From Bacilli bacterium (GTDB lineage Bacteria > Bacillota_I > Bacilli_A > RF39 > UBA660), in the NCBI GenBank assembly GCA_051893155.1, contig JBJFGY010000017.1, forward strand, positions 1,677 through 65,676: a DNA stretch of 64,000 bases, written 5' to 3'. A model generated the notes under the pieces. The model ran no database searches, was not told the origin of the DNA, and was given only the letters and a program-made list of their open reading frames with translations. Made by a program: the position numbers and the translations under genes. Below, one piece after another: positions 23,130-53,521 of the stretch (its first letter is position 1; each line of letters begins with the position of its first letter).

Positions 23130-24105
23130 TTTTTCTCCTTAACAAACTATATATTTTTATTAATAAAAAACTAATACAAAAACTACTAAAAAATACTATA
23201 ATAAATAATAAAGGAATCATAAAAAGTGAATAATAATTCCGTACTAAATAATTATTTATTATAAATTCAAATATTAACATACTAAATAATAAACTTAAAA
23301 ATAAATAATTTATATACTTTTCATAATTAAATTTTCCTTTACAATTAAATAATAAATAAAATACAGAAACAACATAACTAACCATTAATAAATTACTATT
23401 ATTTATTAATGTAGATTTAAAATATAAACCATTATTTGATAATAAATAAGTTATTATGATTAAATAAATAAACATCATAACATTTATTATTATAGAATAT
23501 CTTTTTATTTTCTTTGTATTTAATTTATTTTTATTTAAATATATCAATTTTCCAATAATGAAATATATTAAATTATTTATAAATGGTAAATTAAAATCAA
23601 TATTTACAAATGGGCCAACTAAATTTAATATAAGATAAATTATAACTAATATACTTAATAATTTAATCTCATTCATATCAAGATTATCAACTAATTTATT
23701 TACAAAAGGATAAAATATGTATAAACAAATTATTGTTAATAAAATGTTAGCAACTGAATTAATAGGACTTATTAAATATAAATAAATATCACTTAATTTA
23801 ATATTATAAATAATCATAAAAGTGATAGTAAATAATAAATATAATAAATATATTTTAATTATTTCTTTTATATAATCTTTTAAATCAAATTTTTTGGTAT
23901 GTAAATATATTCCTAAAAACATTATAAATAAAGGTAATCCACATTTACTAAACACTATACATACTAATGAAAATATAAAGGAAATCACTCCATTATTTAT
24001 ATATATTTTAGCAAAATAATTACTTATTATAGAAAGTATAATAAGTAAAATACTCCAAAAATAAATTATTTCTAATTTTACATCTTTTTTTACCATATTA
24101 ATCAA
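23113..24105 (-). CDS. polytopic integral membrane protein of unknown function
   Basis: 330 aa with about 10 predicted TM segments. Possibly a small 30-aa hydrophobic ORF immediately upstream (24106-24198, minus). Confidence 0.4.
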   Translation of the reverse strand: MINMVKKDVKLEIIYFWSILLIILSIISNYFAKIYINNGVISFIFSLVCIVFSKCGLPLFIMFLGIYLHTKKFDLKDYIKEIIKIYLLYLLFTITFMIIYNIKLSDIYLYLISPINSVANILLTIICLYIFYPFVNKLVDNLDMNEIKLLSILVIIYLILNLVGPFVNIDFNLPFINNLIYFIIGKLIYLNKNKLNTKKIKRYSIIINVMMFIYLIIITYLLSNNGLYFKSTLINNSNLLMVSYVVSVFYLLFNCKGKFNYEKYINYLFLSLLFSMLIFEFIINNYLVRNYYSLFMIPLLFIIVFFSSFCISFLLIKIYSLLRRKNGKKY

Positions 24106-40784: not shown

Positions 40785-42752
40785 TTATTTTTTATATTTA
40801 TAAGCAATATTATAATAATCATAATCAATTATATATTGACTCAAATTAATCCTATTATTAACTAATTGCTTTATGTTTGCTACATAATCTTCATCAACAC
40901 TTTGGCCATTATTTAATACAAATTCACTAGTTGCTGCAAAATATTTTCCTTTATCAGTTACCCATGAACGATTATCAAACATTGCAAGGCCATCTTCTGT
41001 TGATAATATATCTTTTCCAATAATTAGTCTTGAATCATATTCAATACCAAATAAATTATATATTGTTGGTAAAACATCTAATTGACTTCCAACTTTGTTA
41101 ATTTCTACTTTATCCATAGCACTATTATATAAAATAAATTTACTACGATTAATTTCAATTTTATCGTCTTTTTCATAACTAGATACTTCATTAACTTGTT
41201 TAACAGTTAATTCATATGGATAATGATCACCTACTAAAGCAATAACTGTATCTTCTAAAATACCTTCCTTTTCAAGTTTATTAATTAAATCTTCTAAAGC
41301 TTTATCAAGTTCCATTTGTGCTGCCAAATATGCTTTTACTGGATTTGAATATGGTAAATTAAATGCATCAATTTCTTCTTTATGTTTTTTACTCATACTA
41401 TTACCTTCAAAAGAATAACCAGCATGACCAGATACTGTTGCATAAAATACCATAAATGGTTTATCACTATTTACATAATCGGAAAAAGTTGAATCAATCA
41501 TTTCCACATCACTTTGAGGCCAAATACCACTACACTTAATTTTAGTTTCAAGGCCATTAAAACATGCTATAAAATTATCAAATCCTAAAGATTTTAAATA
41601 TACATTTCTATCCTGAAAATTATATGAATTATTATGATAAGCAAAAGTATTATATCCTTCATTTTTAAATATATTTGCAATTCCCATAGGATATGTATTA
41701 TCACCACTCCTAAATTTTTTTAATGATGAAAAATTTGCATAAAGTCCGGTTAATTCTTGAAATTCCCCACCAATTGTACTATATATAGTCGGTGTATAAA
41801 AATTATTAAATACAAATCCATTATTAACAAGTTTATAAAGTGTTGGTGTAATATCTTTATCAACAGCAATCTCATTAAAACTTTCAGCCATAAATAAAAT
41901 TAAATTTTTTCCTTTAAATTTTCCTGTATATTCATTTTGATATGAACCTATATCATTTTTAAAATAATTTGACATCATAACAATTTTATCATTATTTGAA
42001 TAATCATTAATAATACCATCAAAATCAATATCTAATGTATTAGAATCATAATTTATATCAATAATTGTCTTATTATCATTACCATGTTCAATATTTATTT
42101 TTTCTTCAAAGCCAAAAATAAACCGATATGTATCAACCCAAAAAGTATTAATTATTCCAACTTTTTCAATATTAAGAGAAGGATTATTAACTTCATAAAA
42201 TAATTCATAAGGGCTATAACTTTCATCCTTTTTTATATTTAAACTATATATATAACCTATAGAAAATAAAATTAAAAAACATATACTAATTGCTATTTTT
42301 ATATTATTAGTTTTTTTAAACCGAATTTTTTTTCTAATTATAATAACTAAAATTAAAGGAATAGATAAAAGTATTATTCCTGGTAATCTTTTTATTGTTT
42401 CAATTACTGCTTTACCCAAAAAAGATGTAACTTGATCTGCTATTTGTAATATTGAAAAAGATATATAAAAATCAAAAAAATCTTTTACAACATATTGAGC
42501 AACAAACCAAATAGTCCAAAATATAAAAGTAAAATAAAATATAAATCTATTAATTTTTTCTTTAAAAATTCTTGTTAAAATATACATTAATATGCTATAA
42601 CATAAAATAAATATAATCATATTAATGCTTGATGTTATAAAAATTGTCTTATGTAATAAAATTCGATAAATAAATTCCATATAAATAAAACTTAAGAAAA
42701 AAATTACAAATGTACTATATCTTTTATATTCTTTCATATTCCACCTATACAT
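40785..42752 (-). CDS. LTA synthase family protein (membrane-anchored sulfatase-fold; LtaS-like)
   Basis: About 5 N-terminal TM segments, then an extracytoplasmic alkaline-phosphatase/sulfatase-type domain (NLILFMAESF...TPT). Confidence 0.65.
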   Translation of the reverse strand: MYRWNMKEYKRYSTFVIFFLSFIYMEFIYRILLHKTIFITSSINMIIFILCYSILMYILTRIFKEKINRFIFYFTFIFWTIWFVAQYVVKDFFDFYISFSILQIADQVTSFLGKAVIETIKRLPGIILLSIPLILVIIIRKKIRFKKTNNIKIAISICFLILFSIGYIYSLNIKKDESYSPYELFYEVNNPSLNIEKVGIINTFWVDTYRFIFGFEEKINIEHGNDNKTIIDINYDSNTLDIDFDGIINDYSNNDKIVMMSNYFKNDIGSYQNEYTGKFKGKNLILFMAESFNEIAVDKDITPTLYKLVNNGFVFNNFYTPTIYSTIGGEFQELTGLYANFSSLKKFRSGDNTYPMGIANIFKNEGYNTFAYHNNSYNFQDRNVYLKSLGFDNFIACFNGLETKIKCSGIWPQSDVEMIDSTFSDYVNSDKPFMVFYATVSGHAGYSFEGNSMSKKHKEEIDAFNLPYSNPVKAYLAAQMELDKALEDLINKLEKEGILEDTVIALVGDHYPYELTVKQVNEVSSYEKDDKIEINRSKFILYNSAMDKVEINKVGSQLDVLPTIYNLFGIEYDSRLIIGKDILSTEDGLAMFDNRSWVTDKGKYFAATSEFVLNNGQSVDEDYVANIKQLVNNRINLSQYIIDYDYYNIAYKYKK

Positions 42753-42798
42753 ATTATATCATATATTTTTTCTATATTATAAAAATTTTAAAAAGTTA

Positions 42799-44415
42799 TT
42801 AATAATTTAATGTCCTAAATTTTTTTACGCCATATTTACAAATTACAAAGTATAGTATAATTATAGTTAATATAAAAACAATAATTTGTAAAATAATAAC
42901 TATATAAGCAATTTTATAAAATTTTATCATAATAAGTATTGAAATAAGACCTAAACCCATTCCTAAAAATACAGCAACCATAGAACTTAAACTTTGTTTA
43001 ATTACTTCTACTTCAGTTGTCCACTTTAATTTAGGATATTTTAAATTAATTAAAATACCAATCATTGCACTAAGTGTTGGAACAGTCAATGTTAAAAATA
43101 TAATAAAGATTATATCTAATAATTTCACTTTAAAAAAAATTATAAATACTAAATCATTAATAAACATAAGTGGAATTACTAAAATCATACTAAATAATAC
43201 TTTTGAAAATATAATACTTTTTTCATTTATTGGTAAACTTTTTATAATATTTATTTTCTTACCTTCTAAAGAAATACTTGAAGAAGTAATAGATGTCATA
43301 AAACTTATAAAAATAATTATTTCAAAATATATTACTGGAGCATATTTTGTTATAGAAACAATTGAAATTTGTTCTTGCATATCACCATTAATTAAATTAA
43401 CAAAATTTTGAGAATTGCAACAAAAAAGTATTATCATAATAAGCATTAATATAATTCCAAACAAAGTATTAATTACATATACTGGAGAGGAAAAATAATA
43501 TTTAAATTCCTTTTTTATTAATGAAGTAATTTTATTATTTACTTTTATACTGTTATGATTATGCTTTTTTACTTTTTTTGTTTTAGTAACTGATGATTTA
43601 GATATAATCTTATAATAATTAATTGAGCCCAAATAAACAAAAATAATTAATGGAATTATATTAAATAAAATTAATTTTATAAAAGCTAATATATCAAATT
43701 TATTTATTAAGGATATATATGCATTTATTGGATAATAAAATTTTGTTATTATTTTATTAATAATTGGTGCTTTAGTGACAAAATTATTTACACTATTTTC
43801 CATTGAAAATGAAAAATAATAGATTATAACAAAAAAAATTATAGAAAGAATTGTTTGAACTCTTTTCTTATTTTTAAAATTAACAGATAAACCTTTTACA
43901 ATATATCCAATTATTGAAGCAATAATTGTAGGTATAATTGGTATTAGTAGAATCATTATTAAAGATATAAAATAAAAATTTACATTGGGATGTTCAAAAT
44001 ATGAATAAACAACTAAAGCAGGTAAAAATATCATTAATACATAAATATATTGAAATATTAAAAATTTAATTAGTCTTGCTAAAAATATTTTTTCCTTTTT
44101 TATAGGTAAAGAAAAAAGTAAATCATTATCTTCAGATTCAAATAAAATTCCTTGTGATTTAAAAAAACCTTGTAAAATTATAAAAAAAGATATTGCCATT
44201 ATAAATAAACTTAAACAAACATATGTTAAGTTAGCATCATGAAGTGGCTTTGCAAACATATAGGCATACACTCCTACTGAATACATTAGAAGTGCAAATA
44301 ATATTAATGGAAATAATATTTTTTTTATTTTTGATTTATTATTATTTGATTTTATTTTTAAAATATTTAATCCATCTTTTAATAAAACTTTTAATAAAGA
44401 TAATGTTTGTTTCAT
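42799..44415 (-). CDS. ABC transporter permease (large polytopic, ABC-2/exporter type)
   Basis: 538 aa with about 12 TM. Start overlaps the upstream ATPase gene. Confidence 0.5.
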   Translation of the reverse strand: MKQTLSLLKVLLKDGLNILKIKSNNNKSKIKKILFPLILFALLMYSVGVYAYMFAKPLHDANLTYVCLSLFIMAISFFIILQGFFKSQGILFESEDNDLLFSLPIKKEKIFLARLIKFLIFQYIYVLMIFLPALVVYSYFEHPNVNFYFISLIMILLIPIIPTIIASIIGYIVKGLSVNFKNKKRVQTILSIIFFVIIYYFSFSMENSVNNFVTKAPIINKIITKFYYPINAYISLINKFDILAFIKLILFNIIPLIIFVYLGSINYYKIISKSSVTKTKKVKKHNHNSIKVNNKITSLIKKEFKYYFSSPVYVINTLFGIILMLIMIILFCCNSQNFVNLINGDMQEQISIVSITKYAPVIYFEIIIFISFMTSITSSSISLEGKKINIIKSLPINEKSIIFSKVLFSMILVIPLMFINDLVFIIFFKVKLLDIIFIIFLTLTVPTLSAMIGILINLKYPKLKWTTEVEVIKQSLSSMVAVFLGMGLGLISILIMIKFYKIAYIVIILQIIVFILTIIILYFVICKYGVKKFRTLNY

Positions 44416-45122
44416 TTTTCATCCTCAAGTTCTAAAAATACTTCTTCTAAAGATTCGTCACCTTTAATATTTTTCATAGAACCAACTTTAATAAGTTTAC
44501 CATTTTTTATAATTGCTACTTCATCACAAAGTTTTTCAGCAACATCCAATATATGTGTTGAATAAAAAATGATTTTATTTTCTTTCACCATTTCCTTCAT
44601 TATTTTTTTCATATCAAACACGGCCTTTGGATCAAGACCTACAAATGGTTCGTCCATAATTAATATTTCTGGATTATGAGAAAGTGCTGCAATTAATGCA
44701 ACTTTTTGTTTCATTCCATGTGAAAAGCTTGATATTTCATCATATAAATTATTTTCAAGTTCAAGCATCTTTGCATATTTTCTAATGTTTTCTTCTCGCA
44801 CTTCTAATGGTGTTTCATACATATCACAAACAAAGTCAATAAAATCAATAGCTTTCATATTTTCATAAAGATCTGGATTATCTGGAATATAAGCCATTAT
44901 CTTTTTGCACTCTATAGGATTTTCTTTTATAGAATTTCCATTTATTAAAATATCTCCTTCATCAAATTCAATTATTCCCATCATTGCTTTTATCATTGTT
45001 GTTTTTCCTGCTCCATTATGACCTATAAAAGCAAAAATTTTTCCATTTTTAATATTAAAGTTCACATTATCAAGAGCTTTTTTTGTATTGTATTTTTTAC
45101 TAACATTTTTAATTTCTATCAT
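44412..45122 (-). CDS. ABC transporter ATP-binding protein
   Basis: Walker A GHNGAGKTT, signature FSHGMKQKVAL, Walker B ILIMDEPF. Confidence 0.85.
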   Translation of the reverse strand: MIEIKNVSKKYNTKKALDNVNFNIKNGKIFAFIGHNGAGKTTMIKAMMGIIEFDEGDILINGNSIKENPIECKKIMAYIPDNPDLYENMKAIDFIDFVCDMYETPLEVREENIRKYAKMLELENNLYDEISSFSHGMKQKVALIAALSHNPEILIMDEPFVGLDPKAVFDMKKIMKEMVKENKIIFYSTHILDVAEKLCDEVAIIKNGKLIKVGSMKNIKGDESLEEVFLELEDEK

Positions 45123-45181
45123 ATATAAAGGCCTTTCTATATATATATCATATCATATTTTATGAAAAAAGATAGATTATT

Positions 45182-45619
45182 TTAACTTAATCTATCTTTT
45201 ACAATCTTACTAACTAAAGACATATCTGCATTAGTTATTTTTGAAGAAATAATTTTCATTAAATTTCCCATATCTTTCATTGAAGTTGGTTTAACTTCTT
45301 CGAAGACTAAATCAATTACTTTATTTATTTCTTCTTCACTCATTTCTTGTGGTAAGTATTTATTTAATACTTCAACTTCATGTTCTAGTTCTTTTACAGT
45401 CTCAAGTTTATTATATTTTTTGTATTCCTCAATAGAATCTTTTCTAGTTTTAACTTGTTTTTTTATAACTTTTAAAACTTCCTCATCAGTAAGTTCATGT
45501 AAAGAGCCTTTTCGACTTTCAACAATAAATTCACTCTTTAACATTCTTAAGACAGATAAGGTAAATTTATCACCACTTTTTAAAGCGTTTTTTAAATCTA
45601 AATTAATTTGTTCTAACAT
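45182..45619 (-). CDS. yqeY: GatB/YqeY domain protein
   Basis: 145 aa. Conserved N-terminus DLKNALKSGDKFTLSVLRML. Canonical partner downstream of rpsU. Confidence 0.85.
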   Translation of the reverse strand: MLEQINLDLKNALKSGDKFTLSVLRMLKSEFIVESRKGSLHELTDEEVLKVIKKQVKTRKDSIEEYKKYNKLETVKELEHEVEVLNKYLPQEMSEEEINKVIDLVFEEVKPTSMKDMGNLMKIISSKITNADMSLVSKIVKDRLS

Positions 45620-45628
45620 AATTACTCC

Positions 45629-45817
45629 TTAATTATGATTTCTACGGCGTGAATTTTTAATATTTTCTTTCTTTTCATTTCTTCTTTTAACGCCTGGTTT
45701 TTCATAGCATTTTCTCTTCTTAAGTTCTGAAGGGACGCCACTACGAGCAAATTTTGCTTTAAACTTTTTCAAAGCAAGATCAACATTACCATTTTGAACT
45801 ACAACCTTTGTCATCAT
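45629..45817 (-). CDS. rpsU: 30S ribosomal protein S21
   Basis: MTKVVVQNGNVDLALKKFKAKFARSGVPSELKKRKCYEKPGVKRR. Start placed at ATGATG after the gaagggaggg RBS; the track ORF started inside the RBS. Confidence 0.85.
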   Translation of the reverse strand: MMTKVVVQNGNVDLALKKFKAKFARSGVPSELKKRKCYEKPGVKRRNEKKENIKNSRRRNHN

Positions 45818-45843
45818 TATCCCTCCCTTCATTAACTAGCATT

Positions 45844-45872
45844 ATTATAACACCTACCACATATTTTGACAA
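45844..45872 (-). promoter_or_regulatory. sigma-A promoter for rpsU-yqeY
   Basis: Minus-strand reading: TTGTCA, 17 nt, TATAAT. It lies about 25 nt upstream of the RBS and only 6 nt downstream of the peptide-2 stop. Confidence 0.55.
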
Positions 45873-45877
45873 GATTT

Positions 45878-46033
45878 TTAACAACTTGTATGATTAAATA
45901 ATCGACGCAATGTTGAACCAAAATTTTGTCCATAACCATATATGGCAATAATTAATTTTCCTGCAGCAGCAAGCCAAGAAGCACTTACAGCTCCACCAAC
46001 ATATAAAACGCTTTCATCACTATTTAACACCAT
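45878..46033 (-). CDS. double-glycine-leader peptide 2 (candidate bacteriocin or signalling peptide precursor). Too small for the ORF track.
   Basis: My own translation: MVLNSDESVLYVGG then AVSASWLAAAGKLIIAIYGYGQNFGSTLRRLFNHTSC. The leader fits the GG-leader consensus (L-12, E-8, Y-4, GG). The predicted mature part of 37 aa has a GxxxG motif. The ATG is 1 nt after the peptide-1 stop. Confidence 0.55.
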   Translation of the reverse strand: MVLNSDESVLYVGGAVSASWLAAAGKLIIAIYGYGQNFGSTLRRLFNHTSC

Positions 46034-46034
46034 T

Positions 46035-46181
46035 TTATCTTATATTGCAAGCCTTTGGATTAGAAAAGCCATCAATAATTCCAAAAAAGAATGAACTAAT
46101 TACTGAAATAATAAAAATACTACCCAAAGAAAACTTTGCACCTCCTGTATATTTTATCATTTCATCATCTTTCAAAAGCAT
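46035..46181 (-). CDS. double-glycine-leader peptide 1 (candidate bacteriocin or signalling peptide precursor). Too small for the ORF track.
   Basis: Strong RBS GGAGGT 6 nt upstream. MLLKDDEMIKYTGG then AKFSLGSIFIISVISSFFFGIIDGFSNPKACNIR. The leader has L-12, E-8, M-7, Y-4 and GG. The mature part is hydrophobic with a GxxxG motif (GIIDG). Confidence 0.6.
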   Translation of the reverse strand: MLLKDDEMIKYTGGAKFSLGSIFIISVISSFFFGIIDGFSNPKACNIR

Positions 46182-46193
46182 GCTACCTCCTTT

Positions 46194-46601
46194 CTAAAAT
46201 ATAATTTTAAATATTTTTTTTATTATTTTTTCTTTATCAAAATAAAATGTTATTTTCACAACTTCATTTTCTTTTAAATTTATATTTGTTTTTAATGTAT
46301 AAATTTGATAGTTTTGGTAATTTTCATTTAATAAATCTGAAATATTATCAATCTTATAACTATATTCATCATTTTTTATTTTCATCTTATTATTTAAAGT
46401 TATTTTGTCAGAGTTTTCTACTAAAATGTTAACTTTAATAAAGCCATTTTCATAAATACCATAAGTATTAAAATTACTATATGATTCTAAAAAAAATGAA
46501 AGAATAATAAAAATAATAAATATACCTAAAAACATAATTAAAAATAAATTATTTTTATATTTAATATTTTGCAAATAATAATAACTACTTTTCATATTCA
46601 C
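46194..46601 (-). CDS. small N-anchored membrane protein (possible minimal or truncated HlyD/LcnD-like accessory, or an immunity protein)
   Basis: 135 aa with a single TM (LFLIMFLGIFIIFIILSFFL) and a roughly 95-aa extracytoplasmic part. It overlaps the PCAT stop by 17 nt and ends 12 nt before peptide 1. Confidence 0.45.
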   Translation of the reverse strand: MNMKSSYYYLQNIKYKNNLFLIMFLGIFIIFIILSFFLESYSNFNTYGIYENGFIKVNILVENSDKITLNNKMKIKNDEYSYKIDNISDLLNENYQNYQIYTLKTNINLKENEVVKITFYFDKEKIIKKIFKIIF

Positions 46602-48642
46602 CTTTTAAAGTAATAACTCGATCAAACAAATTATCTTGTTTTTTATGTGATATATAAATTATTGTTTTTTCTGGATATTCTCTAATAATATTTTTAATTA
46701 TTGTTTTTTCCATAAAATAATCTATTTCACTAAGTGCTTCATCTAAAATTAATATTTTACTATTTCTTAATAAAGCCCTTGCTAAAATAATTCTCTGTTT
46801 TTCACCTCCTGATATATTAATCGAATCATTACTTATTCCAAAATCATATCTTAATTTTCTTTTATTAACAATTAAATCGATTAAACAAATTTTACAAACT
46901 TTATCAAAATTACTTTCATCTTTATAATTAAATAAAATATTATTTTTTATTGTATCAGTATATAAATTTTCTTTTTGACCAACATAAACAATATTATTTT
47001 TTATTGTGTTAAGACTATAATCATTGATATTTATACCATTTATATAAATATTACCATTATTTAAAGAAAATTCTCTAGTAAGTAGTTTACATAAACTACT
47101 TTTACCACTTCCACTTTTTCCTTTAATCATGATTTTTTCATTAGTTTTAACTACTTCACTAAAATCTTTTATAATGTAATTATAATTATCATAAGCAAAG
47201 CTTACATTTTCAAAAATAATATCGCCATTAATTAGTTTTTTACTTTCACCAACTTTTTCCTCTTTTATATTTATAAAATCACATATTTTATTAAAACTTG
47301 CTCGTAAAAAATTATATTTTGGTATTAGTGATACTATATTTTTAATGGGGTCTATAAAATAAGATAAAAATGTATTATAAATAACTAAACTAATTAAAGA
47401 AAATTTATTATTATAAATTAAATAAAATCCATAAGTATTAATTAAAAAAAATGATAGTTCATAAAAAATATTTTTAATTGTTTCAAAAAAATTTATATTT
47501 ATATTAAAAGAATAATTATCAAAAATCAAATCACATATTTTATTTTCAATTTTATTTAAAATATTTTCAGTTTCATTTAAATTTTTTATACTATTTATCA
47601 TATTAATATTTTCTAATAAAATAGTATTAACTTCTGTTTGATATTCAATATTTTTTCGTATTCTTTTATAAAAATATGGACTAATTAAAATAGAAATTAT
47701 TATATAAATTACAACAAATATAATTAATATAAATGTTATTTTAATATTTAAATTTAAAAGAACTATAAAAGCAGCAAGGCAAATCATTAAGTCTAAAAAT
47801 GCAAAAATAAATATTTGTGAAAATAATTCTTTAATACTACTTATTTCGTTTACTCGTGACATTATTTCACCACTGCTTCTTGATTCAATAACATTTAAAG
47901 GAAGATGAAATAAATGATTAATAAATTCCTTAAAAACACTTATATCAATATTTTTATTAATATGATTTTCATAGTATTTTTTTAAATAATCAAAAATTAT
48001 TTTAAAAATAATACAAACTAAAAATATAAAAATTATTATTTTAATTGTATTTTGAAATGCATTGTTTGAAATAAATTCATTCATTATTTTAAAATACATT
48101 CCAGATATTACAGTAATAATTGTTAATAAAAAACTACATAATAATGCATTAATACATAATTTTTTATTTTTTATTAAAATTTTTATAAAAAGACTATAAA
48201 TACTATTTTCTTTTTCTAATAAAATAATTTTATCTTTAGGAGTAAATTGTAAAATAACGCCAGTAAATATTTTATTAAAATCATCTTTAGTCATTTTTAT
48301 CTTGCCTTTACTAGGATTCATTAAAATATAATTTGAATTTTTAATACCATATAAGCACATAAAATGCGTAAGACCATTATCATATTTCACGTGTACAATC
48401 GCAGGCAAAATAATGTTATCTAATTCTTTATCTTCAAATTTTTTAGCTATAGCATCAAATCCATACTTTTCCGCGGCTTTAAGTAAATGATAGACACTAA
48501 CCCCTTGCATTGATGTATAAGTATCAAGTCTAATCTTTTCTATTGGAACATAACCATTATAAAATCTTATAATAGATTGAAGACAACAAGCACCACAATC
48601 TTTTACATCTCTTTGACAAACTATTACTATTTTATTTTTCAT
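46585..48642 (-). CDS. peptidase-containing ABC transporter (C39 peptidase + 6TM + ABC ATPase), bacteriocin/peptide exporter
   Basis: N-terminal C39 motif VCQRDVKDCGACCLQSI with the conserved His (THFMCLYG). Walker A GKSGSGKSS, signature ISGGEKQRIILARAL, Walker B ILILDEALS. Confidence 0.85.
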   Translation of the reverse strand: MKNKIVIVCQRDVKDCGACCLQSIIRFYNGYVPIEKIRLDTYTSMQGVSVYHLLKAAEKYGFDAIAKKFEDKELDNIILPAIVHVKYDNGLTHFMCLYGIKNSNYILMNPSKGKIKMTKDDFNKIFTGVILQFTPKDKIILLEKENSIYSLFIKILIKNKKLCINALLCSFLLTIITVISGMYFKIMNEFISNNAFQNTIKIIIFIFLVCIIFKIIFDYLKKYYENHINKNIDISVFKEFINHLFHLPLNVIESRSSGEIMSRVNEISSIKELFSQIFIFAFLDLMICLAAFIVLLNLNIKITFILIIFVVIYIIISILISPYFYKRIRKNIEYQTEVNTILLENINMINSIKNLNETENILNKIENKICDLIFDNYSFNININFFETIKNIFYELSFFLINTYGFYLIYNNKFSLISLVIYNTFLSYFIDPIKNIVSLIPKYNFLRASFNKICDFINIKEEKVGESKKLINGDIIFENVSFAYDNYNYIIKDFSEVVKTNEKIMIKGKSGSGKSSLCKLLTREFSLNNGNIYINGININDYSLNTIKNNIVYVGQKENLYTDTIKNNILFNYKDESNFDKVCKICLIDLIVNKRKLRYDFGISNDSINISGGEKQRIILARALLRNSKILILDEALSEIDYFMEKTIIKNIIREYPEKTIIYISHKKQDNLFDRVITLKGEYEK

Positions 48643-48827
48643 TTATTTATCCTCCTTTCACCCTACTTATACTCACAATAAATTATTTTTCCTTTTTATT
48701 TTTTTACTTTTAAAATTTTTAATTTAAATTTAACAATTTTTTACTAAAATTAATAATAAAATTTTACAATTATTAACAGTTATATTTTTAGGACTTAGAC
48801 AATATAATTTACTATGTATAAGGAGGA

Positions 48828-49331
48828 ATGAAAGTATTGATTAATAAACAAAATTTATGGTTTATAACTTTATTTGCACTTATTTTAATTTTAGGAATTT
48901 ATTATATTACATTACCGGATAATGCCATACCAACATTTTCGACTAATGAAACAAACTTACAAAATACAATCGAAGTTACAGATTCTGATGTAATTATAGC
49001 TCTTAAAGTTGAAGAAGAAGAAAAAATATTAAAAGAAATGGAAGAAGCACAAAAAATATTACTAGATAATGCTGCAACTACAGAAGAAAAAAATGCTGCA
49101 TATGAAACATTACAACAACTTAATTTTAAAAAAGGCAAAATAGTTGAAATAGAAAAATTAATTAAAGAAAAATTTGATGTTGATTCATGTGTTAAAATTG
49201 ATGGAAATAAAATAAATATTACGTTATCATGTGAAGATAAAGGTGCAGAATTTGCAAATAATGTTATTAAAGAAGTACAAACACTTTATAGTTCGCAAAT
49301 GTATATAACAATTAAATTTCAAAGTAAATAG
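48828..49331 (+). CDS. N-anchored sporulation-type protein (SpoIIIAH-like architecture; assignment tentative)
   Basis: 167 aa. TM, an E-rich coiled linker, and a C-terminal domain ending ...VKIDGNKINITLSCEDKGAEFANNVIKEV... Confidence 0.3.
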   Translation: MKVLINKQNLWFITLFALILILGIYYITLPDNAIPTFSTNETNLQNTIEVTDSDVIIALKVEEEEKILKEMEEAQKILLDNAATTEEKNAAYETLQQLNFKKGKIVEIEKLIKEKFDVDSCVKIDGNKINITLSCEDKGAEFANNVIKEVQTLYSSQMYITIKFQSK

Positions 49332-49372
49332 GCTTATATATTACCTTTTTTTTGTATTTTTCATAATATATT

Positions 49373-49606
49373 ATGAAGCATAAGAAAGGAAGGCCTATGA
49401 AAAAAATGTTATTAACCAAAAGAGAACAAGAAATTTTTGAACTTTTAGTTCTTAACAAATCAACTAAAGAAATAGCCGAAAAACTCAATATTAGTCAAAA
49501 AACTGTTCGAAATCATATATCTAATACAATGCAAAAATTAGGTGTTAAAGGCCGATGTAATGCGATAATAGAATTATTAAAACTTGGAGCAATTTCATTA
49601 GATTAA
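49373..49606 (+). CDS. gerE: sporulation transcription regulator GerE (LuxR-type HTH)
   Basis: LLTKREQEIFELLVLNKSTKEIAEKLNISQKTVRNHISNTMQKLGVKGRCNAIIELLKLG closely matches the GerE pattern. The real start is probably the ATG at 49397 after the aaggaagg RBS. Confidence 0.8.
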   Translation: MKHKKGRPMKKMLLTKREQEIFELLVLNKSTKEIAEKLNISQKTVRNHISNTMQKLGVKGRCNAIIELLKLGAISLD

Positions 49607-49610
49607 TAAA

Positions 49611-49636
49611 AAAGCCAATAAGGCTTTTTTTGAATA
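49611..49636 (+). terminator. rho-independent terminator after gerE
   Basis: aaaaagccaataaggcttttttt: an agcc/ggct stem plus a T run. Confidence 0.55.
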
Positions 49637-49675
49637 AAGAATAAAATATTAAATATAATTTATTAGGTGATGTAA

Positions 49676-50578
49676 ATGCTAAAAAGACGTGCTATAAAAA
49701 GAATAATTATATCTACAGGTGCACTTCTTATATTTTTTTTAATTTATTTTTTCCCAAATCAAAATAATTTTTCTATTCCAGAAGAAGTAATATATATTGA
49801 AGAATTAACTTTACCACTATATACAATAGATCAAAATAATTATGTTGCAAGAACAAATATTATAAAAAAAGAAAATGATGATATAAACTATATAATAAAT
49901 GTTTTAACAAAAGGTTCAATTAATTCAAATTATCTACCTAGTAATTTTTACTCGCCTATACCAAAAGGTACAAAGTTAATTGACTATAGCTTAAATGATG
50001 GACTTTTAAAACTTAATTTTTCAAAAGAATTATTAAATGTAACAAAATCAGATGAAGAAAAAATGCTTGAAAGTTTAATATATTCATTATGTGAACTTGA
50101 TAATGTAAATAAAATTATGATTTTTGTTGAAAATGAAAAATTAAACGAACTTCCAAATTCAAAGACTAAACTACCTACCGTTTTAGATAAAACTTACGGA
50201 ATAAATAAAGTATATGATATTAAAAATATTAAAGATACCACTAAAACAACAATATACTATTTAAGTAAATATGAAGATGATTTATATTATGTTCCAATTA
50301 CAAAAATTACTAATAATGATGAAAAAAATTATGTAGAAATAATCGTTAATGAATTAAAAACTTCTCCAATTTATGAAAGTAATTTATTAAGTTATTTAAA
50401 TGCTAGTTATGAACTTGAAAGTTATGAAATACTAGAAAATTCTATTACATTATCATTTAATAATAATTTAATTGCTTCTTTAGAAGATAAAGATTTAGTA
50501 GAAAAAGTTAAATATTCAATTTCACTTTCTTTAAGGGACACATATAATCTAGATAATATTATAATTAATGTGAATTAA
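49676..50578 (+). CDS. gerM: GerM-like germination/sporulation protein (two GerMN-type repeats), N-anchored
   Basis: 300 aa. N-terminal TM. Two repeats with ...KLNFS.../...TLSFN... modules, resembling the GerMN domain organisation. Tentative. Confidence 0.4.
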   Translation: MLKRRAIKRIIISTGALLIFFLIYFFPNQNNFSIPEEVIYIEELTLPLYTIDQNNYVARTNIIKKENDDINYIINVLTKGSINSNYLPSNFYSPIPKGTKLIDYSLNDGLLKLNFSKELLNVTKSDEEKMLESLIYSLCELDNVNKIMIFVENEKLNELPNSKTKLPTVLDKTYGINKVYDIKNIKDTTKTTIYYLSKYEDDLYYVPITKITNNDEKNYVEIIVNELKTSPIYESNLLSYLNASYELESYEILENSITLSFNNNLIASLEDKDLVEKVKYSISLSLRDTYNLDNIIINVN

Positions 50579-50617
50579 ATAAAAAAAATAAACCATATTA
50601 ATTATGGAGATGATTAT

Positions 50618-50944
50618 ATGCCAGTTATTGCATTTAAAAAGAAACTTAAAGGATATGATGTAAGCTTTGCTTTTAATACTTGTTATAATAATGAATGTAA
50701 ATTAAAAATTAAAAATACTGATGTTTGTTTTTCTGAAGAAGAAAAACAAATAAATGAAGTAATAAAAAATTTTGATGAAAAAGCTTATCAAAAATATTTA
50801 GATAAATATAATATCATTTTTATAGCGCTTGCAAAATATTTTATTGATAAAATACCAAATATTTTCTCAATAAAATTTGAAGATAAAAATCAAAAATGTA
50901 TTTTATATGTGGACGAAATTGAAAATTTTAGTCAAAAAGATTAA
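50618..50944 (+). CDS. hypothetical protein
   Basis: 108-aa ORF with an RBS ggagatg-like upstream. No motif. Confidence 0.35.
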   Translation: MPVIAFKKKLKGYDVSFAFNTCYNNECKLKIKNTDVCFSEEEKQINEVIKNFDEKAYQKYLDKYNIIFIALAKYFIDKIPNIFSIKFEDKNQKCILYVDEIENFSQKD

Positions 50945-50950
50945 TTTTTC

Positions 50951-50980
50951 TTGTAAATAAAAAAAATTTGATATATAATG
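50951..50980 (+). promoter_or_regulatory. sigma-A promoter for tRNA-Arg
   Basis: TTGTAA, 17 nt, TATAAT, ending about 11 nt before the tRNA 5' end. Confidence 0.45.
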
Positions 50981-50990
50981 TAATTGTGAT

Positions 50991-51067
<77 letters not shown>

Positions 51068-51073
51068 TAATTA

Positions 51074-51112
51074 AGTTTTTTAAAAGTAACTATTATAAAG
51101 TTACTTTTTTTT
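51074..51112 (+). terminator. rho-independent terminator after tRNA-Arg
   Basis: aaagtaactattataaagttacttttttttt. Confidence 0.6.
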
Positions 51113-51208
51113 ATTTAATAATTTATTTGCAAGAACAATACCTATTGGTAAACATATAATATATATTATTACAATTTTATTATTATCCTTACTTTTTTAT
51201 AAAAACAT

Positions 51209-52024
51209 TTAATTATTAAGTTTCTCAATTGAATAAAAATAATAATCATTATTATGCATTTTAAATGATATTTTTAATTTATTATAATTATTGCAATTAT
51301 CTTTTGTAATTTCTTCCGAATTTTCATTATATGAAACATATAAATATACATTGCCATTGATTAATTCATATTTATATAAGTAATCTACGAAAGAACTTGT
51401 CATACCACCTCCACAAGGAGCATTATAATATGCATTATATTTTTCTGAATATATATATTGACCTGCAAATGTATTTACTTTAAAACTTCGATTTGTTATT
51501 TTTTTACCAAAAGAAATATTTTCATAATTTTTTTCAACATTACTTGCATCATATTTAACAACACATTGTTCACCTGTTAAAGTTCCATCCTTATAATAAA
51601 AATTTTCTTTTTCAGTATCATAAATAAAATCATCCAAATTTTCAACGCTTTTTCTTTCAAGAACTTTTAAATCCTCATTTAAACTTAAATATAATAATTC
51701 ATCTTCATTAAGATTTTCTATAGTAAAATTATAGTTTTTTTTCATAAATAAAAAAATTGGTCGAATATTTTCATATCTTTTTTGTATTTTGTTTAATTCC
51801 TCTATTGTAATGGTTTCTTTTTTTACATTTAATTCATCATTAGAATTTTCGTTAGTTACTAGGTTGTTAGTTACTATGTTATTATTATCAATTTTAGAAT
51901 TATTATTTAAAATATTTTTTTCTAAAAATATACCTATTGGCACACAAATAATTACACATACTATTACTGTAATTAAAATTGTAACTAAACTATTATTTTT
52001 CTTATTTTTAGTACCATCTATCAT
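51209..52024 (-). CDS. hypothetical N-anchored protein
   Basis: 271 aa with one N-terminal TM, then a soluble domain containing Cys pairs. Confidence 0.4.
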   Translation of the reverse strand: MIDGTKNKKNNSLVTILITVIVCVIICVPIGIFLEKNILNNNSKIDNNNIVTNNLVTNENSNDELNVKKETITIEELNKIQKRYENIRPIFLFMKKNYNFTIENLNEDELLYLSLNEDLKVLERKSVENLDDFIYDTEKENFYYKDGTLTGEQCVVKYDASNVEKNYENISFGKKITNRSFKVNTFAGQYIYSEKYNAYYNAPCGGGMTSSFVDYLYKYELINGNVYLYVSYNENSEEITKDNCNNYNKLKISFKMHNNDYYFYSIEKLNN

Positions 52025-52102
52025 AACCTCACCTCTTATTATAAGATTATCATATTATAAAAAATAATTCATTAAAAAAGTAAGATTTTGTCCTACTTTA
52101 CA

Positions 52103-53521
52103 TTATTTTACTATATTGCCATCTAAACTAAAACTTTTAGCGTCTGTTATTTTAACAGAAACAATGTTACCTATTTCTTTTTTATCACAAGCCACATTTA
52201 CAAGTTTCATAGTTTCCGTATAACCATATAATTTTTCTTTATCTTTTTCACTTTCACCAATTAAAAGAACTTTAACTACTTTATTTAATAGTTTTTCATT
52301 ACTTTCTTTAGAATATTTGTTAACTAATTCATTTAATCTATGTAATCTATTTTCTTTTTCTTCTTGAGATACATCATCTTTCATAAATGATGAAGCAGTA
52401 CCTTTTCTTTCGGAATAAATAAATGTATATGCACCATCATATTTACAATAATTTACAATATCTAAAGTTTCTTGAAAATCTTCTTCTGTTTCGGAAGGAA
52501 AACCAACTATTATATCAGTGGTAATCGCCACGCCTGGTATTTTTTCTTTCATTTTATTAAATAATGTAATATATTCTTCTTTAGTATATCTTCGATTCAT
52601 CTTCTTTAATATTCTATTACTACCTGATTGAATAGGAAGATGAATATAAGGCATAATATTATCATACTTACTTATTACATCAATCATTTTATCAGTAAAA
52701 TCCCATGGATGAGATGTAACAAATCTAAGTCTTGGAATTCCAAGTTTTGCAACATTTTCAAGTAAAGTTGCAAAATCATAACCTAAATTTAAATCTTTTC
52801 CGTAAGCATTAACATTTTGGCCAAGTAAAGTTATTTCTTTATAACCTGAATCTACTAATGCTTTACATTCATTTAAAATACATTCCATTTTTCTACTACG
52901 TTCTCTACCTCTTGTATATGGAACAATACAATATGTACAAAATTTATCACAACCAAACATTACATTAACCCAAGCGCAAATATTTGAATCTCTTTTATAA
53001 ATTATATTTTCTGGAACAATATCGCTATTTGAATGAACTAATATATTTTGCTTATCAAGTTTTTCAATTAATAGTTTAGGTAAATCAAAAATATTATTTG
53101 GGCCAATTACAATATCAACATATTTATGATTTTTTTCAATATCTTCAACTACATCAACTTGACCAGCCATACAACCCATTAAAATAATAATTAAATCTTT
53201 TTTTTCTTTTTTTAAATGTTTACATCTACCTAAATAGCCAAACACTTTATCATGAGCATTTTCTCTTATTGCACAAGTATTTAATACTACTATATCTGCT
53301 TTTACTAATTCATCAGTTTTTGTAAATCCTAACATTTCTAAATATGAAGATATTTGCTCACTATCATGAACATTCATTTGACAACCATATGTTTTAAGAA
53401 AATATTTTTTTCCTTCATATATTTTTTTTATTTCATTATCAACATTTAAATAATTAATTTTAGTTTCAGATCTATCTTTTGCAATATCATAATTTGGTTT
53501 TAACATAAAAATCACTTCCAA
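52103..53521 (-). CDS. miaB: tRNA methylthiotransferase, MiaB family (radical SAM + TRAM)
   Basis: N-terminal MTTase domain (TYGCQMNVHDSEQ), radical SAM CDKFCTYC, C-terminal TRAM. 472 aa. Confidence 0.7.
   Translation of the reverse strand: MEVIFMLKPNYDIAKDRSETKINYLNVDNEIKKIYEGKKYFLKTYGCQMNVHDSEQISSYLEMLGFTKTDELVKADIVVLNTCAIRENAHDKVFGYLGRCKHLKKEKKDLIIILMGCMAGQVDVVEDIEKNHKYVDIVIGPNNIFDLPKLLIEKLDKQNILVHSNSDIVPENIIYKRDSNICAWVNVMFGCDKFCTYCIVPYTRGRERSRKMECILNECKALVDSGYKEITLLGQNVNAYGKDLNLGYDFATLLENVAKLGIPRLRFVTSHPWDFTDKMIDVISKYDNIMPYIHLPIQSGSNRILKKMNRRYTKEEYITLFNKMKEKIPGVAITTDIIVGFPSETEEDFQETLDIVNYCKYDGAYTFIYSERKGTASSFMKDDVSQEEKENRLHRLNELVNKYSKESNEKLLNKVVKVLLIGESEKDKEKLYGYTETMKLVNVACDKKEIGNIVSVKITDAKSFSLDGNIVK

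Follow-up and report, generated by a model that had tools for sequence, protein, structure and literature searches.

Introduction

Class IIb bacteriocins are marked by two adjacent peptide genes, double-glycine (GG) leaders of 15-30 residues, a dedicated ABC transporter and a GxxxG (or AxxxA/SxxxS) motif, and an immunity gene always accompanies the peptide genes (PMC2850506). Exporters of the peptidase-containing ABC type (PCAT/AMS) are defined by the Pfam domains PF03412, PF00664 and PF00005 in one polypeptide, and by the model TIGR01193. One of them, ComA, works together with the full-length HlyD-like protein ComB and the ComDE sensor system. C39 transporters also occur in mycoplasmas, for which no candidate GG substrates have been reported; those lacking known substrates include gene 0401 of the minimal cell JCVI-syn3A (PMC6609329).

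Here we describe a minus-strand locus in a 64,000-nucleotide stretch of DNA (the window) from a very AT-rich uncultured gut bacterium. With a probability that we put at roughly 0.6, this block is an operon of four genes that together produce, process and export a class IIb-like, membrane-active pair of peptides.

Organisation of the locus and its exporter

The initial annotation had reported a C39 ABC exporter of 685 residues, a small membrane protein and two ORFs with GG leaders on the minus strand, and all of them are present where it had placed them. The four ORFs are intact, have good ribosome-binding sites (RBSs) and follow the order exporter-(adaptor)-pepA-pepB, after which come rpsU and yqeY. 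This arrangement is like that of class IIb loci such as lactococcin G (lagA-lagB-lagC-lagD), in which two different peptide genes, both with GG leaders, lie side by side in one operon that also encodes a C39 ABC exporter dedicated to them and an accessory protein.

The exporter gene (48642..46585, minus strand), which is preceded by the RBS GAAAGGAGG, encodes an N-terminal C39 peptidase, a six-helix ABC membrane domain and an ATPase, in that order. As had been anticipated, profile searches recovered all three domains, Peptidase_C39 (E 1.5e-34), ABC_membrane (1.6e-32) and ABC_tran (2.2e-24), each far over its gathering cutoff. The best NCBIfam match was TIGR01193 (E 2e-114), at 383.6 bits against a curated cutoff of 523.85. 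Among solved structures the best relatives were ComA (6e-89) and PCAT1 (2e-86; PDB 8hf7 and 4ry2), which share the three-domain architecture and align with the exporter over residues 10-668, that is, over its full length. The Walker A, signature and Walker B motifs are present, and the catalytic Gln, Cys and His are kept (Q10, C16 and H93, aligning with Q11, C17 and H96 of ComA). The window locus differs from the ComA system in having neither ComB nor ComDE. The earlier view that a C39 exporter beside its cognate GG peptides represents an export system of the class II bacteriocin or pheromone type is strongly supported by these domains and by homologues.

One residue departs from the ComA pattern. 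The Asp of the catalytic triad (ComA D112) is Asn109 in the window exporter, a substitution found otherwise only in the identical contig L001, whereas Asp occupies this position in ComA and in 18/18 other distinct relatives. The system might therefore be decaying or inactive in this genome, its leaders no longer removed efficiently, and damaged copies are occasionally seen elsewhere, with pepA disrupted in L024 and L038 and a split adaptor gene in L051. We nevertheless consider decay very unlikely. Here each of the four reading frames is uninterrupted and has a good RBS, the peptidase retains its nucleophile Cys, its His and its oxyanion Gln, and dN/dS between the window and its close relatives is low. 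Asn may, moreover, be tolerated at this position, as papain-type proteases naturally have Asn as the third member of their triad.

Two conserved GG-leader peptides

The pepA gene (46181..46035, minus strand) has a strong RBS, GAAAGGAGG, and encodes a 48-residue precursor with a predicted 14-residue leader, MLLKDDEMIKYTGG (46181..46140), and a mature peptide of 34 residues, AKFSLGSIFIISVISSFFFGIIDGFSNPKACNIR (46139..46038), of 3697 Da, pI 9.3 and GRAVY 0.94, with a hydrophobic, TM-like core. The pepB gene (46033..45878, minus strand) encodes a 51-residue precursor with a 14-residue leader, MVLNSDESVLYVGG (46033..45992), and a mature peptide of 37 residues, AVSASWLAAAGKLIIAIYGYGQNFGSTLRRLFNHTSC (45991..45881), which is amphipathic (3958 Da, pI 9.8). 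It starts 1 nt past the pepA stop codon, a gap that suggests translational coupling. GG leaders typically have hydrophobic residues at -4, -7 and -12 and Glu at -8; both leaders here have L-12, E-8 and Y-4, and that of pepA has M-7.

Both small ORFs are conserved, and in their homologues the GG stands where cleavage is predicted, in 28/28 pepA-family and 32/32 pepB-family sequences. Across 27 homologue clusters in public data, the pepA family conserves the GG, G34xxxG38 and a SNPxxC motif; the pepB family (31 clusters) has an invariant GG, Y, G35-Q-N-x-G39, R and C-terminal Cys. The GxxxG columns are invariant in both families (28 sequences for G34xxxG38, 32 for G35xxxG39), and each mature peptide carries one conserved C-terminal Cys. 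The mature regions are more conserved than the leaders (0.67 vs 0.54 for pepA; 0.61 vs 0.55 for pepB), and dN/dS lay between 0.05 and 0.56 in all 22 pairwise comparisons (0.13-0.56 for pepA, 0.05-0.27 for pepB); judged from these sequences, both peptides are under purifying selection. Given that each peptide has about 30 homologue clusters, that the GG is invariant, that dN/dS remains within this range, and that the order exporter-(adaptor)-pepA-pepB-rpsU-yqeY recurs in ~50 fetched loci, many of them near-identical, pepA and pepB are, on comparative grounds, real genes far beyond chance. The description of the locus as unannotated is accurate only in part. In several public records (e.g. L001, P0009) pepA is listed as a hypothetical protein; pepB is often missed, or is called as 64-66 residues from a wrong upstream start.

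The mature peptides resemble those of class IIb in being cationic, 30-40 residues long and helix-prone, with GxxxG in each. It had been suggested that the composition could not be matched to a named system. That no longer holds, given the invariant GxxxG of both peptides and the three distant orthologues, with both peptides represented, that score above the curated cutoff (21.5 bits) of TIGR03949, the NCBIfam model for class IIb bacteriocins of the lactobin A/cerein 7B family (L055, 29.4 bits; L022, 26.0 and 22.5 bits). The window peptides themselves do not match TIGR03949 at E<=10 and fall below every curated family cutoff, so they are tied to this family only through transitive homology. Among the matches of the peptide families, the only named families to recur are models of class II(b) bacteriocins; Pfam searches with pepA and pepB returned nothing, even at E<=10. 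We rejected a specific relationship of pepA to lactococcin G-beta, for which the matches scored 13-19 bits, below the cutoff of 37, and in several cases covered the leader only.

There are also differences from class IIb. The leaders, at 14 residues, are just under the usual 15-30, each peptide has an invariant Cys near its C-terminus, and the operon has no immunity gene. A literature search on two-peptide bacteriocins with an interchain disulfide found no relevant report. Taken together, the features of pepA and pepB point to a class IIb-like two-peptide system with a putative biological role.

A small putative partner for the exporter

Between the exporter and pepA lies a gene for a small protein with a single transmembrane (TM) helix (46595..46194, minus strand). 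It had been given as 135 residues, the length of the longer ORF (46601..46194) that begins at a GTG; the protein is indeed there, but homologues place its start at the ATG at 46595, which gives 133 residues. Its start overlaps the stop of the exporter gene by 11 nt. The predicted model has one N-terminal TM helix and an extracytoplasmic beta-barrel of membrane-fusion-protein (MFP) type, and we believe that the protein is best read as a putative miniature membrane-fusion-type export adaptor, or 'mini-MFP'. Fold support is weak, with no Foldseek match to an MFP fold at E<=0.001. No Pfam match was found even at E<=10, nor any membership of an HlyD-type family by sequence, and a PDB profile search with the adaptor family yielded no MFP and a single spurious match to CcpA. 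In contrast to HlyD, MacA, EmrA, AcrA, Spr0693 and ComB/LcnD, the protein would consist of the barrel only, the model having neither an alpha-hairpin nor a separate lipoyl domain; typical HlyD-type accessory proteins are also far larger, at roughly 450 residues against 133.

The adaptor family has a remote likeness to one half of a mycoplasma pair, namely the transporter Mbov_0121 (NF045998) and its partner MAG1140 (NF045999, 126 aa), whose hosts are likewise very AT-rich genomes of the Bacilli/Mollicutes type. Matches of the ~130-residue adaptor family to NF045999 are colinear and near full length, and 20/140 members reach E<=0.01 (best 4.5e-7). Five of these matches, read individually, scored 13.6-17.7 bits, and the window adaptor scored 12 bits (E 0.18). 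The exporter scores 329 bits on NF045998, less than on the generic TIGR01193. Both curated cutoffs are missed: 329 against 500 bits for NF045998, and 12-18 bits, for proteins scanned individually, against 35 for NF045999. Literature searches on Mbov_0121/MAG1140 and on MMSYN1_0401 returned nothing relevant.

No immunity gene was found in the operon, in which the MFP-like protein is the only gene besides the exporter and the peptides. As the sole extra membrane protein of the operon, it could itself be the immunity protein of the two-peptide system, a role to which the 'accessory' proteins of class IIb loci may contribute (PMC2850506) and with which the lack of an MFP match in sequence-level searches would agree. 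We think this rather improbable. The predicted fold, a barrel on a single N-terminal TM anchor, and the overlap of its gene with that of the exporter speak for an adaptor. Furthermore, the protein is absent from lineages L018/L019 and L046, which keep both peptides, and such a loss would be lethal for a producer if this were its only immunity factor. It was also undetected on the short contig L053, where both peptides are kept. An ABC ATPase with a 12-TM permease downstream (45122..42799) was considered as an immunity transporter and rejected, being absent from L007, L018, L020, L046 and L055, all of which have the peptides.

Chromosomal position, promoters and inheritance

A promoter-like element, AAAGGAAAA-N14-GTAT (AGGA, 17 nt, GTAT; 48669..48695, minus strand), precedes the start codon of the exporter by 27 nt. 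The 64-kb window contains two copies of the motif AAAGGAAAW-N14-GWAT, where 0.09 would be expected. Each of 8 fetched loci has a single copy, immediately in front of the exporter gene, and variants can be aligned in more distant ones. SigH promoters have AGGA at -35 and GAAT at -10, with a spacer of 17-18 nt (PMC12456013). The element resembles a promoter of this type, to which we would assign it on its sequence.

At the other end, a sigma-70-type promoter for rpsU (TTGTCA, 17 nt, TG-n-TATAAT; 45844..45872, minus strand), with 11/12 hexamer matches and an extended -10, begins 6 nt past the pepB stop codon and takes up the gap of only 45 nt between the two genes. No intrinsic terminator separates pepB from rpsU, and the interval 45000-49500 contains no terminator-like site. 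The rpsU (S21) and yqeY genes (45182..45832, minus strand; Ribosomal_S21 3.4e-16, YqeY 1.5e-39) are outside the peptide system but mark its fixed chromosomal position, and nearly all related loci have them as neighbours.

In relatives whose adaptor is only ~30-45% identical, the block lies between spoIIIAH, on the opposite strand, and rpsU-yqeY. The genes spoIIIAH, gerE and gerM are on one side and, in several relatives, yabP-yqfD follow rpsU-yqeY on the other. Lineages with a different upstream neighbourhood still have the system linked to rpsU-yqeY, and L055/L056 keep it with no sporulation genes alongside. The initial annotation had called the block inserted. Comparison of the region upstream of rpsU does not support this in the sense of a recent acquisition, as the block is conserved in place in diverged relatives and the linkage to rpsU-yqeY persists in other neighbourhoods. 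We rejected a recent horizontal insertion in view of this synteny across deep divergence and of the low GC of the block, which equals that of another nearby membrane-protein gene. Vertical inheritance, with the system at a fixed site ahead of rpsU-yqeY across a broad clade of uncultured, low-GC Bacilli of the gut, is part of the explanation that we favour, and we hold it with the same fair confidence. Bacteriocins are usually patchy in distribution and fast-evolving; the window locus, unlike those of class IIb, is a core-genome feature and not an accessory or plasmid trait.

Such a history raises the prospect that the peptides are not weapons but exported signals (pheromones) or self-directed developmental factors, lineage-wide and activated by SigH as cells enter stationary phase or sporulation. 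They might then be analogous to ComAB/ComC export, or to the cannibalism and Phr signalling of Bacillus. Of the solved homologues of the exporter, the best is a pheromone exporter, ComA; a SigH-like element is conserved upstream; the block has a fixed place in the core genome beside spoIIIAH/gerE/gerM, with yabP-yqfD beyond rpsU-yqeY in several relatives; the operon lacks an immunity gene; and strong purifying selection acts on the mature peptides even between deeply diverged lineages. Signalling is nonetheless, in our judgement, doubtful, as is the analogy. No immunity gene, kinase or regulator had been noticed nearby and, among the window ORFs scanned (40785-53521), we likewise found none, nor any Rgg/PlcR-type receptor. 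The called genes of related loci also contain no kinase, regulator or receptor of this kind, except that in L055/L056 a short HTH gene of the XRE type precedes the exporter. At 34-37 residues, with a TM-like helix and an invariant GxxxG, the peptides are like pore-forming two-peptide bacteriocins and unlike typical short pheromones. In addition, distant orthologues pass a class IIb bacteriocin model, and L055/L056 have the system away from sporulation genes.

Model for the system and its implications

Based on these observations, we propose the following model for the class IIb-like operon. First, transcription would start from the conserved SigH-like promoter. The adjacent, apparently coupled pepA and pepB ORFs would then be translated in roughly equal amounts. 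The C39 domain of the exporter would recognise each 14-residue leader and cut after Gly-Gly, and the transporter would export the mature peptides of 34 and 37 residues, as expected from the ComA/PCAT1 family. The 133-residue protein, anchored by its TM helix with the beta-barrel outside, may serve as a cut-down adaptor of the HlyD/ComB/LcnD kind, a role that we infer from its fold similarity and from the overlap with the exporter gene. Outside the cell, the hydrophobic pepA helix would pair with the amphipathic pepB helix through the invariant GxxxG motifs, a mode of pairing that has been proposed for every class IIb bacteriocin, and the single conserved Cys of each peptide may form an interchain disulfide. 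Finally, the pair would permeabilise or otherwise act on a target membrane. Several features count against this model: the missing immunity gene, window peptides under all cutoffs, core-genome synteny and strongly conserved mature sequences, which are atypical of bacteriocins, as well as the adaptor-less lineages, N109 and the weakly supported MFP fold.

A bolder scenario would join these strands. The locus could represent a two-peptide system of a whole low-GC Bacilli radiation, ancient, vertically inherited and under SigH control, with a disulfide-linked GxxxG heterodimer and a self-directed or developmental role at the stationary phase/sporulation transition. Its exporter and mini-adaptor would then be an ancestral module surviving in mycoplasmas as the 'orphan' C39 transporter and MAG1140-family pair. 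We offer this as speculation that is probably wrong in at least some part.

With this operon, the class IIb-like repertoire gains two conserved peptide families from uncultured gut Bacilli that had no name before, and peptidase ABC exporters gain a putative new partner, a membrane-fusion-type protein of very small size. Mature pepA and pepB are short enough for direct synthesis and testing. Fixed in the core genome by rpsU, under strong purifying selection, apparently SigH-driven and with no recognisable immunity gene, the locus behaves unlike typical bacteriocin loci, and one may ask whether some 'bacteriocin' modules serve whole lineages as physiological systems. Furthermore, the remote likeness to the MAG1140 and Mbov_0121 families provides a concrete hypothesis for the long-noted missing substrates of mycoplasma C39 transporters: if the ancestral module is real, mycoplasma loci would also hide short, unannotated GG-peptide substrates.

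Operon organisation and the peptide genes

Four closely packed ORFs on the minus strand of the window make up the operon: the exporter (48642..46585, a 685-aa ORF), a small membrane protein (46595..46194), pepA (46181..46035, 48 aa) and pepB (46033..45878, 51 aa), with rpsU and then yqeY lying downstream of pepB. The small-protein gene starts inside the exporter gene, giving an 11-nt overlap; a strong ribosome-binding site (GAAAGGAGG) precedes pepA, and a single base separates the pepA stop from the pepB ATG. The initial annotation described the second gene product as a 135-aa single-TM protein; the N-terminal TM helix is borne out by a structural model, but the length is revised to 133 aa, as homologues favour the ATG at 46595 over the GTG that opens a longer ORF (46601..46194). 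No intrinsic terminators were found across 45000-49500 of the window. A strong sigma-70-type promoter for rpsU (45872..45844, minus strand; TTGTCA, 17 nt, TG-n-TATAAT) begins 6 nt past the pepB stop. The host is uncultured, with a genome of ~20% GC.

Profile searches recovered 27 homologue clusters for pepA and 31 for pepB, every one unnamed or 'hypothetical'. The GG at the predicted cleavage position, on which the annotation had relied, is invariant in the aligned sequences (28/28 for pepA and 32/32 for pepB), and conservation of the two small ORFs is upheld by these clusters and by pairwise dN/dS values of 0.13-0.56 for pepA and 0.05-0.27 for pepB. In the MAG SUG1400 (L002) an exporter 93% identical to that of the window is followed by both peptide genes, with substitutions present and reading frames unbroken. 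By these sequence comparisons, pepA and pepB are real, conserved genes.

In both families conservation is higher in the mature region than in the leader. The pepA family keeps G34-x-x-x-G38 (G-I-I-D-G) and a tail, SNPxxC, and the pepB family keeps Y32, G35-Q-N-x-G39, R44 and a C-terminal Cys; the mature part holds a single Cys in 27 of 28 pepA and 30 of 32 pepB sequences. Mature pepA is predicted to be AKFSLGSIFIISVISSFFFGIIDGFSNPKACNIR (34 aa, 3697 Da, pI 9.3), with a TM-like core, and mature pepB AVSASWLAAAGKLIIAIYGYGQNFGSTLRRLFNHTSC (37 aa, 3958 Da, pI 9.8), which is amphipathic. The profile of each peptide weakly matches the N-terminal part of the other, which suggests that the pair derives from an old duplication.

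In public records pepB is frequently called from an incorrect start further upstream, yielding products of 64-66 aa that overlap pepA (L002:8568-8765, L016:8001-8198, L018:8001-8198); the gene is mis-annotated in many records and missed altogether in L001, a contig identical to the window. At L024:2535-2722 pepA is broken into two reading frames by a frameshift or an assembly error. On a metagenome contig (L038:3277-5000), a gene for a 565-aa large serine recombinase (Resolvase, Recombinase and Zn_ribbon_recom) abuts the last 11 codons of pepA (GYFNPKACNKR), and upstream there is no exporter, no adaptor gene and no 5' part of pepA; pepA seems to have been the target of an integrative element.

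The exporter

The exporter matches Pfam Peptidase_C39 (1.5e-34), ABC_membrane and ABC_tran, as anticipated when it was first called a C39-peptidase ABC transporter. Among NCBIfam models it scores best against TIGR01193, 'peptide cleavage/export ABC transporter' (2e-114, under the curated cutoff), and its closest solved homologues are the peptidase-containing transporters ComA (6e-89) and PCAT1 (2e-86). In the ComA alignment, Q10, C16 and H93 correspond to the oxyanion Gln, the catalytic Cys and the catalytic His, and the triad Asp (ComA D112) is replaced by Asn109 (codon at window 48316-48318). Asp occupies this position in 18/18 other distinct peptidase domains extracted from the fetched relatives, among which Asn is found only in the window and L001. 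Functional decay of the window copy through D109N is very improbable in our estimate. Papain-type enzymes have Asn at the third-triad position, and by analogy Asn109 may be tolerated.

The 133-aa protein as a putative adaptor

No Pfam family matched the 133-aa protein, even at E<=10, and a PDB sequence profile search returned nothing relevant. In an exhaustive profile search 271 representatives matched at E<=0.001; those among the matches listed are ~130-145 aa long, truncated fragments aside. AlphaFold2, run on a 140-sequence alignment, predicts with a pLDDT of 93.9 a TM helix at about residues 15-35, a beta-barrel and a short C-terminal helix. Foldseek searches with this model gave weak agreement and nothing at E<=0.001; Spr0693 was matched with probability 0.98 but E 0.14. 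Based on the modelled fold, the topology and the gene coupling, we read the protein as a miniature, barrel-only adaptor of the membrane-fusion type (mini-MFP) serving the exporter. It is improbable that it is instead an immunity factor. The adaptor gene is absent from L018/L019 and L046, where ~100-150 nt lie between exporter and pepA (L018:7791-7889) and both peptide genes are intact. It was likewise not found on L053, a short contig, and at L051:417-814 it is broken into two reading frames by a frameshift or an assembly error.

The sole named sequence relative of this putative adaptor is NCBIfam NF045999, the 'MAG1140 family' of mycoplasmas. Twenty of 140 members of the adaptor family match it at E<=0.01 (best 4.5e-7), and the window protein scores 12 bits; the inspected alignments are colinear and near full length, at 12-18 bits against a 35-bit cutoff. 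Against the adjoining NCBIfam accession, NF045998 (the 'Mbov_0121 family peptidase domain-containing ABC transporter' of mycoplasmas), the exporter scores 329 bits (cutoff 500).

Peptide class

Neither window peptide reaches a curated family cutoff. Among 31 diverse members of the two families, class II(b) bacteriocin models were the only recurrent named matches: the lactococcin G-beta/enterocin 1071B model matched nine (best E 0.0014), and the lactobin A/cerein 7B class IIb model TIGR03949 and Pfam Bacteriocin_IIc three each. Three orthologues from distant relatives score above the 21.5-bit cutoff of TIGR03949, namely the pepA-like peptides of L055 (29.4) and L022 (26.0) and the pepB-like peptide of L022 (22.5). 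According to the review PMC2850506, the two peptide genes of a class IIb system sit side by side in an operon that also carries an immunity gene, their products have GG leaders, export relies on a dedicated ABC transporter that may be joined by an accessory protein, and every known member has GxxxG motifs; the window operon shares all of these hallmarks except the immunity gene, none being present in it. We favour a class IIb-like two-peptide system as the overall explanation, with a probability of roughly 0.6, and regard its processing and export part as highly likely.

Two pepA-like peptides (L056:7516-7668 and P0032) weakly match (E 0.04-0.1) NCBIfam NF045747, the 'MPN313 family protein' of Mycoplasma pneumoniae, over their N-terminal 40-49 residues, possibly through leader-like similarity only.

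Genomic context

We annotated ~50 loci, many of them near-identical, with profiles in one uniform pass; they came from look-ups of peptide and adaptor homologues and from a metagenome scan. The MAGs concerned derive from human gut, Hadza and rumen samples. The order exporter-(adaptor)-pepA-pepB-rpsU-yqeY is found on every contig long enough, except L054, which keeps the sporulation neighbours and not rpsU, and the disrupted L038. The block had been described as inserted upstream of rpsU-yqeY; a recent acquisition is not supported, as the block occupies the same site even in relatives whose adaptor is only ~30-45% identical. This conserved order across diverged relatives argues that the block is old and has been passed on vertically within the radiation; it would count as an insertion only against the mtaB...rpsU arrangement of Bacillus subtilis.

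In most loci spoIIIAH, a regulator of the gerE type and gerM lie in opposite orientation upstream of the exporter, with mtaB (window 53521..52103) beyond them. Past yqeY, several lineages continue with yabP-yqfD-ybeY-dgkA-era-recO. In the window's subclade, and in this subclade only, genes for a 236-aa ABC ATPase and a 538-aa permease with 12 TM segments (Pfam ABC_tran_2; 12TM_1 in precomputed matches) take this place (window 42799-45122, minus strand), followed by a sulfatase-family gene (40785-42752). The more distant L055 and L056 are without the sporulation neighbours, yet the block still lies upstream of rpsU-yqeY, and a third GG-leader peptide of 41-43 aa precedes pepA.

Both of these loci (L055:7284-7999, L056:7385-9356) also encode a conserved 64-80-aa membrane protein (…KKGFASMY…), a possible immunity candidate, immediately upstream of rpsU, and they have an XRE-type HTH gene divergent from the exporter. 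In both, the intergenic region contains TTTGTCGAAC some 100 nt ahead of the exporter start. This sequence includes TGTCGAA, the Spo0A-box consensus, but an operator for the neighbouring XRE regulator is an equally plausible reading.

A putative SigH-like promoter and the proposed mechanism

When the 200-nt regions preceding the exporter in 13 loci were aligned, a single bipartite element stood out as conserved besides the ribosome-binding site: AAAGGAAAT, 14 nt, G(T/A)AT. In the window it lies at 48695..48669 (minus strand), 27 nt ahead of the exporter start codon. The exact pattern AAAGGAAAW-N14-GWAT occurs twice in the 64-kb window against 0.09 expected, and once in each of eight loci, at the same place upstream of the exporter; the second window match (23314-23340, minus strand) is within an ORF. 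Read as AGGA, 17 nt, GTAT, the exporter-upstream element agrees with the published SigH promoter (-35 AGGA, -10 GAAT, spacer 17-18 nt; PMC12456013), and we infer that it is a SigH promoter. Under SigH control, if true, the operon would be expressed as cells enter stationary phase or begin to sporulate.

Such a promoter, together with core-genome fixation of the block, its strong conservation and the missing immunity gene, favours the main rival explanation, in which the peptides would serve as signals or as self-directed developmental factors. We consider such a role rather unlikely, as no receptor genes lie beside the operon and the peptide chemistry resembles that of pore-formers. Under the favoured class IIb-like explanation, transcription would start from the SigH-like promoter, with translation of pepA and pepB coupled; the exporter would cut the precursors after GG, at G14, and export the peptides with the help of the mini-MFP; and outside the cell the two helices would pair via their GxxxG motifs. 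The lone cysteine of each peptide might join the other in an interchain disulfide, giving a heterodimer of about 7654 Da. This is purely inferred, and our literature search turned up no precedent for such a bond in two-peptide bacteriocins.

A peptidase-containing ABC transporter with GG peptides of the class IIb type is an already known kind of system. New, as far as our searches show, are both peptide families, the family of barrel-only adaptors, the constant site adjoining rpsU throughout a broad clade of uncultured organisms, the promoter of SigH-like type and the absence of an immunity gene. Mycoplasma C39 transporters have been reported to lack GG substrates (PMC6609329), and the sub-threshold similarity to the MAG1140 and Mbov_0121 families may offer a lead on this reported lack.
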